Of a stretch of DNA of 30,616 nt, positions 18,933-19,944 are shown piece after piece. Every line of letters begins with the position of its first letter. The first letter of the stretch is position 1. Position numbers and translations under genes: made by a program. This DNA comes from a virus. Lineage: Duplodnaviria > Heunggongvirae > Uroviricota > Caudoviricetes. The stretch spans positions 1 to 30,616 of the IMG/VR virus record IMGVR_UViG_2671180357_000001; one strand, written 5' to 3'. Below the pieces are notes generated by a model that was given only the letters and a program-made list of their open reading frames with translations, was not told the origin of the DNA and did no database searches.

Positions 18933-19219
18933 GACTTAATCTTCCCCTCCTTCAGCAGTATCGCCTGCGTCCTCATCACGCCTTCGAGGTGGTAAAGTCT
19001 GGCGTCTTTGTTGTCGAGAATCCGGGTGCGTCGGTCGATCTCCGCGTGGCAGTCGCTACAAGCCCATGCGCCGATCAGGTCGTCAGGCTTCATCCCCGTT
19101 CCGCAAATTCCAGCCATCCGGTAATGTGCCAGAACTGTGGTTTCAGGATTGCCATTGCATACGCCGTAAATACGTACCTGGCATTCTCTGCCGCGCGCTT
19201 CTTTGCGTAGGTTAGCCAT
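18929..19219 (-). CDS. DUF1364/YbcO-like zinc-binding protein (putative nuclease)
   Basis: 96 aa; RGRECQVRIYGVCNGNPETTVLAH...CSDCH resembles recalled E. coli DLP12 YbcO. Confidence 0.55.
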   Translation of the reverse strand: MANLRKEARGRECQVRIYGVCNGNPETTVLAHYRMAGICGTGMKPDDLIGAWACSDCHAEIDRRTRILDNKDARLYHLEGVMRTQAILLKEGKIKS

Positions 19220-19944
19220 TAAGCAGCCTCCCCTGTTACTTTCAGCATTCCGTTATCGAGCAGCTTTCTGGTCAGCCACTGTTGACCACGCCCGGTGATT
19301 TTTGTGGTGAACGATATCTGTATCCCGTGATTTGTGTTGACCGCTGTTTCTTTCACTGTGAAATAGCCGCGATCCATATATTCCTGCATTGGCACATTGC
19401 GCCGGGAACCTGAAGCAATAAGGATTTTGTGATCGCGCATCCACGCAAACAGTTTGTTTGGACCAATTCCAACAACCTTTGCAAAGTTTCCAATCAAAAT
19501 TCCACTGGCCTCGCCAACGCGATCGGCAAAATCAACTTTAGGTGCTGCGAGAGCAAGCTGTTTCTCCAGTTCAGCCTTCTGGTCTTCAAGGTCAGCCGCG
19601 AGGCGCAATGCTTCAGAGAAGGTTTGTGGGATTTTCGCGGTTGCCCCTTCAAGCTCTCGCCAGCGGTCAACAAGGCGAGCGGTGAACTCTGGCGACAACT
19701 GGGCGACGACAATAATGCTGTCTCGCTTTCCTTGTTCGCCCTCGAAGACGTAGAAATCACGCTTCCCGGTAATAACACCTAAATCATTGATTATGTTAGT
19801 GTGCTGCAATGCAGGAGGCTTGATAACGCCACGTTTCACCAATCTATCTATGGATACTTTTACATTGCTATGGCGGCTTTCTACCAACTCAGCGATTTCA
19901 ATGCTTGTCATTTTGATGGCATTGCCATTTATTAACTCATTCAT
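19219..19944 (-). CDS. Antirepressor-like protein with C-terminal KilA-C domain
   Basis: 241 aa; C-terminal region FAKVVGIGPNKLFAWMRDHKILIASGS...YMDRGYF resembles KilA-C domains; sits in the nin region. Confidence 0.6.
   Translation of the reverse strand: MNELINGNAIKMTSIEIAELVESRHSNVKVSIDRLVKRGVIKPPALQHTNIINDLGVITGKRDFYVFEGEQGKRDSIIVVAQLSPEFTARLVDRWRELEGATAKIPQTFSEALRLAADLEDQKAELEKQLALAAPKVDFADRVGEASGILIGNFAKVVGIGPNKLFAWMRDHKILIASGSRRNVPMQEYMDRGYFTVKETAVNTNHGIQISFTTKITGRGQQWLTRKLLDNGMLKVTGEAA

Follow-up and report, generated by a model that had tools for sequence, protein, structure and literature searches.

A nin-region gene with a KilAC domain in a P22-like phage is very probably roi, which encodes an IHF-linked DNA-binding regulator in HK022

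Roi of phage HK022 is reportedly a helix-turn-helix DNA-binding protein whose binding site lies within its own gene and adjoins an IHF site, with IHF stabilizing the complex. The wild-type protein is said to be the determinant that prevents lytic growth of HK022 on IHF-deficient hosts, and its C-terminal half reportedly resembles P1 Ant1 and KilA. To our knowledge, a single functional study of Roi exists, from 1996; this gap is general to Roi and in no way special to the DNA described here. Secondary sources name Roi as a DNA-binding protein and implicate it in the control of lytic growth (PMC3430580, PMC4587872), and the P22-like prophage Gally carries the transcriptional regulators roi, mnt, c2, c1, and rha (PMC9928086).

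We analyzed a 30.6-kb stretch of phage DNA (hereafter, the window; Table 1) in which a preliminary description had flagged an antirepressor-like gene. The window carries the same set of regulators as Gally. Its structural genes are of P22-like podovirus type: they encode the portal, terminase, and coat, the ejection proteins, and a tailspike head-binding domain. The best partial matches are phages E212, CUS-3, Sf101, and Kapi1. The early region is lambdoid: a CI/C2-type repressor is encoded on the plus strand, a Cro-like helix-turn-helix protein and CII are encoded opposite to it, and the region also specifies an O protein and a primase–helicase. The last of these fuses a Toprim primase to a DnaB-like helicase and is neither a lambda P-type loader nor a P22 gp12-type helicase. 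In the pL operon, the interval between N and a Rad52/Erf-like recombinase gene holds a 340-aa ORF that matched nothing in Pfam or PADLOC and is a possible candidate for an accessory or anti-defense gene.

The tailspike gene runs off the edge of the window and is divergent from a gene for an Mnt-like repressor. Neither arc nor ant lies between the two, whereas the P22 order is mnt–arc–ant–gene 9; with no ant beside mnt, the phage therefore has an "orphan" Mnt and no Ant for it to control. Mnt may here act instead on a Pant-like promoter from which the tailspike gene is read. The mnt gene of the Gally prophage is induced 40-fold in macrophages (PMC9928086).

Table 1. Positions of roi, its domains and neighbors, and other features of the window
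Feature	Coordinates	Strand	Basis and remarks
Tailspike N-terminal head-binding domain, P22-type	1..338	(-)	PF09008, E = 2e-68; begins at 338, cut off by the window edge
Mnt-like repressor	427..720	(+)	Arc and Repressor_Mnt domains; divergent from tailspike, ~88 bp apart
Second Rha-family regulator	15491..16045	(-)	Phage_pRha and ORF11CD3, TIGR02681; between lysis genes and small terminase
Second good terminator-like hairpin	17543..17560	(-), coding strand	3' of Q, at the tR' position
ybcO/DUF1364, putative nuclease	18929..19219	(-)	PF07102, E = 3e-44; RefSeq name "DUF1364 domain-containing protein"
roi CDS	19219..19944	(-)	241-codon ORF, ATG start; very probable HK022/HK97 roi ortholog
C-terminal KilAC/ANT domain, aa 127-229	19258..19566	(-)	PF03374
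Inter-domain helix/linker, aa ~100-145	19510..19647	(-)	Single helix at aa ~109-145 in the AlphaFold2 model; mosaic patch
N-terminal Rha-type winged helix-turn-helix, aa 12-99	19648..19911	(-)	Phage_pRha match and AlphaFold2 model
IHF consensus AATCAATGATTTA, codons 51-55 of roi	19780..19792	(-), coding strand	Consensus match only
ninF, 58 aa from internal ATG	19937..20113	(-)	PF05810, E = 3e-12; PHROG 672 at residues 20-77 of a longer ORF
147-aa ORF	20106..20549	(-)	PHROG 1511; between ninE and ninF, roughly at the P22 ninX position
Terminator-like hairpin (tR2-like), 5' of nin region	21544..21567	(-)	8-bp stem, 6 GC pairs, T-run
Fused Toprim primase/DnaB-like helicase, 626 aa	21597..23477	(-)	Replication
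CI/C2-type repressor	25275..26009	(+)	Pfam HTH_3 and Peptidase_S24; 5.3 kb from roi
N homolog	26279..26671	(+)	Early region
340-aa ORF	27354..28376	(+)	pL operon

The flagged gene was recovered as an exact ORF, on a strand that the preliminary description had not given. Its product is identical to HK022 Roi, whose gene is annotated "roi, DNA binding protein," at 227 of 241 positions (94%) in a gapless alignment (E = 5e-174). Nucleotide identity is highest with the mEp506 gene (99.2%), followed by HK022 (94%), HK542 and mEpX1/X2 (93–94%), HK97 (93%), and H-19B and VT2-Sakai (89%); many Stx-converting phages likewise stand at ~89%. Relatives within this 89–99% range carry the annotation roi, Roi, or "DNA binding protein"; they belong to HK022, HK97, mEpX1/X2, HK629, H-19B, and VT2-Sakai. 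Public databases already contain a protein of identical sequence (P0001). The gene is almost certainly a roi ortholog. Named and partly characterized in lambdoid phages (HK022, HK97, and the Stx phages), roi is a known gene in its canonical position here, an identity that the preliminary description had missed.

The position of roi, described beforehand as lying between ninF and a DUF1364 gene, was confirmed, with NinF encoded 5' and YbcO 3'. In order of transcription, all on the minus strand, the region encodes NinB, NinE, a 147-aa ORF, NinF, Roi, YbcO, RusA, NinH, and a Q-type antiterminator, and the order ninF–roi–ybcO–rusA–ninH–Q is the same in HK022 and mEp506. The 147-aa ORF had no significant match in Pfam or PADLOC, and PADLOC likewise assigned Roi and its neighbors to no defense system. 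Across 80 viral-contig loci, roi always lay in the nin region, and the gene that followed encoded YbcO (38/80) or NinG (39/80). P22 lacks roi, and its ninF abuts ninG. Both observations agree with the comparison drawn at the outset to a lambda-type nin region, which has ninG at this spot. Missing from P22 and recurrent elsewhere, roi is therefore an optional but recurrent module of the operon.

Its junctions, read from the sequence, are tight on both sides. The roi ATG falls within the end of ninF, so that stop and start overlap by 8 nt (ATGAATGA), and a strong Shine–Dalgarno sequence, GAGGAGG, stands 6 nt 5' of the ATG; at the other end, the TAA stop of roi and the ATG of ybcO overlap as TAATG. 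The gene is translationally coupled to ninF and ybcO. A promoter and terminator scan found no promoter-like or terminator-like site flanking roi; the only terminator-like hit at the gene is weak and lies within the coding sequence, and such hits were fewer than in shuffled controls. A LexA-box search gave no match within 2.5 kb of roi and a total number of matches below chance expectation. The earlier characterization of the gene as a moron-like insertion is not borne out by these results: moron status was rejected because the scan found no flanking promoter or terminator, and a gene that overlaps both of its neighbors is an operon module rather than a moron.

Expression from pR after N antitermination, which had also been suggested, is plausible. 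The genes from O to Q lie on one strand and are tightly packed, the early region has an N homolog, and a terminator-like hairpin separates the primase–helicase gene from the nin region at a position matching the annotated terminator in P22 ninA. Judging from this arrangement, transcripts from pR would have to read through the hairpin to reach roi. A second good terminator-like hairpin lies beyond Q (Table 1). With no promoter of its own and coupling to its neighbors, roi would be made only on the pR delayed-early transcript, when the resident repressor is already gone.

The C-terminal KilA-C domain attributed to the protein at the outset was detected by profile search: PF03374 (ANT/KilAC) reached 113.6 bits, where 25.3 is the cut-off (E = 7e-33), and the alignment spans positions 1–106 of the 108 in the profile; the domain call therefore stands. 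At the N terminus, Phage_pRha (PF09669) scored 24.3 bits on the window's Roi, under its cut-off of 29.9; precomputed Pfam annotation assigns PF09669 to the identical database protein. Among 58 diverse full-length relatives, KilAC was matched by all 58 and Phage_pRha by 54 at E ≤ 0.001 (best, 8.8e-18), and the architecture is therefore a Rha-type winged helix-turn-helix joined to KilAC. An AlphaFold2 model built on the 58 relatives was confident (mean pLDDT 91; residues are numbered as in the protein minus one, the query having been entered without the ATG-encoded residue). It places an N-terminal helix-turn-helix with a β-hairpin wing (pLDDT > 93) ahead of one long helix, which leads to a compact helix/hairpin domain at the C terminus. 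Roi has a predicted helix-turn-helix DNA-binding motif. A sequence search against solved structures returned spectrin coiled-coil hits at E = 0.1 only, which were judged spurious.

The window also encodes a second Rha-family regulator, the counterpart of P22 rha. With this protein and Roi, the phage therefore has two proteins with Rha-type N-terminal domains and differing C-terminal domains.

The sole perfect match to WATCAANNNNTTR in the window falls inside roi, a gene that makes up 2.4% of the sequence; as 1.37 perfect IHF consensus matches are expected per window by chance and one was observed, only its location and conservation are suggestive. The motif is identical in HK022 roi and is kept at the equivalent codons in four of five N-terminal cassette types (55 of 81 loci), and one cassette type (26 of 81 loci) has no intragenic consensus. 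Location, identity with HK022, and retention across cassettes make this candidate site consistent with the one published for HK022, although conservation of the motif could instead reflect the I-N-x-L-G peptide that it encodes. A search for operators near the site (direct and inverted 9-mers with ≤1 mismatch, in five cassette types) gave counts within the shuffle range, with no type-specific repeats above shuffled controls. Synonymous-site conservation around the motif was uninformative because alleles differ by block-wise mosaicism and not gradually.

The best explanation, to which we give a probability of roughly 0.68, takes roi orthology together with a mechanism in which N-mediated antitermination would let transcription from pR reach roi, and translation would couple the gene with ninF and ybcO. 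The N-terminal winged helix-turn-helix would bind the intragenic site, where Roi and IHF would form a nucleoprotein complex located 1.4–2 kb upstream of Q, which lies on the same transcript. Such a complex may modulate delayed-early and late development, for example the transcription that reaches Q, or local DNA transactions. Our best guess for the KilAC domain is a protein–protein or host-directed module.

A different role had been proposed in the preliminary description, that of an antirepressor acting on a heterologous repressor. Stated fully, Roi would bind and inactivate the CI/C2-type repressor of its own phage or of a co-resident prophage and so promote induction in trans. Trans-acting antirepressors reportedly mediate cross-talk between prophages in Salmonella, a precedent that favors the idea. 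Known antirepressor genes are silenced by a dedicated control, such as LexA. That of P22 ant is exerted by Mnt, Arc, and sar; roi has nothing comparable: neither a repressor nor an operator is dedicated to it, it lacks its own promoter, and no LexA box lies within 2.5 kb. It was correctly stated beforehand that no cognate repressor is adjacent, but this matters only if Roi is an antirepressor. Expression confined to the time after the resident repressor is lost would be pointless against the phage's own repressor. Furthermore, HK022 Roi, 94% identical in sequence, is reported to bind DNA and, in its wild-type form, to inhibit lytic growth on hosts deficient in IHF. Where KilAC domains have been studied by experiment, the activities seen were different ones, namely inhibition of SOS and of cell division.

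What speaks for antirepressor activity is, beyond the Salmonella precedent, nomenclature. The Pfam and PHROG family names say as much—PHROG 63, "anti-repressor Ant," matches the roi product at E = 2.8e-91, and no NCBIfam model matches Roi—and the ANT family is named after P1 Ant1/Ant2, which genetics has defined as antirepressors (PMC9043618). The same paper calls the exact function of the KilAC domain in "antirepressors" unclear. In P22-like phages the proven antirepressor is P22 Ant, which shows no similarity to Roi: it consists of P22_AR_N and P22_AR_C, and homology was rejected on a best BLASTP alignment of 23.5 bits over 37 residues. The proposal is thus unsupported beyond the Pfam family name, and we consider it very unlikely. 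The "antirepressor" label is inherited from the name of a domain, and no function is to be read from it.

Comparison of 81 roi alleles, including loci from viral contigs, showed that the gene is a block mosaic, a minor additional result. Residues ~22–65, which span the turn, recognition helix, and wing, form a variable cassette of at least five quite different types; the linker patch (residues ~100–133) exists in two types; and the KilAC half is near-invariant, with pairwise non-synonymous differences of ~0.01–0.03. The window allele combines an HK022-type cassette with a Stx-phage-type linker: all 14 substitutions relative to HK022 Roi fall within residues 99–137, with differences clustering at codons 99–134, and residues 1–98 and 138–241 are identical. 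The pattern suggests, on allele sequences, that domains of differing DNA specificity are joined to a constant effector or interaction domain.

This contrast between a near-invariant KilAC half and at least five recognition types also fits a conserved host target combined with a diversifying DNA or phage target, as would be expected if Roi were an AriS-like dual-function regulator or host-directed effector whose variable N-terminal domain regulates phage DNA and whose invariant KilAC domain damps SOS or blocks cell division. CreP, phi11 Gp07, and P1 KilA are cited as division-blocking examples; we know of no toxicity or SOS phenotype reported for Roi. In the literature, CreP, a stand-alone protein made up of the single domain KilAC, is described as bacteriostatic; both CreP and the KilA-type C-terminal domain of phi11 Gp07 inhibit cell division. 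In Listeria AriS it is the SOS response that KilAC down-regulates, and the domain does so on its own; pRha plus KilAC is one of three AriS-like architectures (PMC9043618). All of this evidence comes from distant homologs in Firmicutes and Acinetobacter that are related at the Pfam level only, and C-terminal invariance could equally reflect recent spread by recombination; we regard such a dual function as rather unlikely, with some prospect of being right.

A bolder and decidedly doubtful extension would make roi an "address plus payload" gene, in which the swappable cassette sets the DNA site recognized, that site lies beside the IHF site within the cassette-encoding DNA itself, and the invariant KilAC half acts on a conserved host factor. 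Were this true, a single recombination unit would carry both the specificity of the protein and its target, the host target of KilAC would be SOS/RecA or cell division, as for AriS or CreP, and many "KilAC antirepressors" of enterobacterial prophages would be host-manipulating regulators and not antirepressors.

The gene could also be a functionless, dispensable passenger, an accessory gene decaying in this phage. It is missing from lambda and P22, and IS629 insertions in roi are tolerated in some Stx2a phages (PMC4587872). Against decay stand an intact reading frame with a strong ribosome-binding site, the very low non-synonymous diversity of the C-terminal half, and its abundance: 219 phage records contain roi, and so do 986 (~18%) of the complete E. 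coli genomes examined, which numbered 5,426; in 941 genomes the copy spans 80% of the gene or more, and relatives form more than 6,500 representative clusters. We regard this reading as extremely improbable.

The useful outcome is a correction of the "antirepressor" label: the nearest characterized protein is an IHF-linked DNA-binding regulator. The gene is annotated in hundreds of records and, beyond its share of E. coli genomes, is carried by most Stx phages; to establish the function of Roi and its KilAC domain would moderately advance the understanding of how Stx phages develop.

Among the known systems compared with Roi, P22 Ant and P1 Ant1 have the "antirepressor" label in common with it, and KilAC is, according to the literature, common to P1 Ant1 and KilA. 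Both P22 Ant and P1 Ant are encoded in dedicated immI regions under their own repressors, whereas roi is not so placed, and the domains of P22 Ant are unrelated to those of Roi, with no significant similarity. Rha—of P22 and of the window—shares the Rha-type N-terminal winged helix-turn-helix with Roi but carries ORF11CD3 in place of KilAC at its C terminus and is located after the lysis genes. The best-known phenotype of Rha is likewise tied to IHF, namely interference with growth on IHF-deficient hosts. AriS and AriS-like proteins of Listeria phages resemble Roi in combining a variable N-terminal domain with a C-terminal KilAC, and pRha with KilAC is listed among their architectures (PMC9043618); the relation holds at the level of Pfam domains only, host phylum and genomic position differ, and the SOS inhibition known from AriS could be extended to Roi only by analogy.

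The closest systems are other roi genes. Roi of Stx phages (H-19B, 933W-like, VT2-Sakai, and phi24B) is ~88–90% identical in amino acid sequence and shares the nin position, linker type, and KilAC domain, but has a different N-terminal cassette and is usually followed by ninG, in contrast to ybcO–rusA in the window. With HK022 Roi, and likewise with HK97 gp65 and the proteins of mEpX1/X2, HK629, and mEp506, the window shares the flanking ninF, ybcO, rusA, and ninH and the intragenic IHF consensus; it differs from HK022 Roi by the 14 linker substitutions, its linker being of the Stx-phage type. At the level of whole genomes, HK022 is an HK97-like siphovirus, whereas the window belongs to a P22-like podovirus with a Q of a different type downstream, and its primase–helicase adds another mosaic feature that separates it from HK022, mEp506, and P22.
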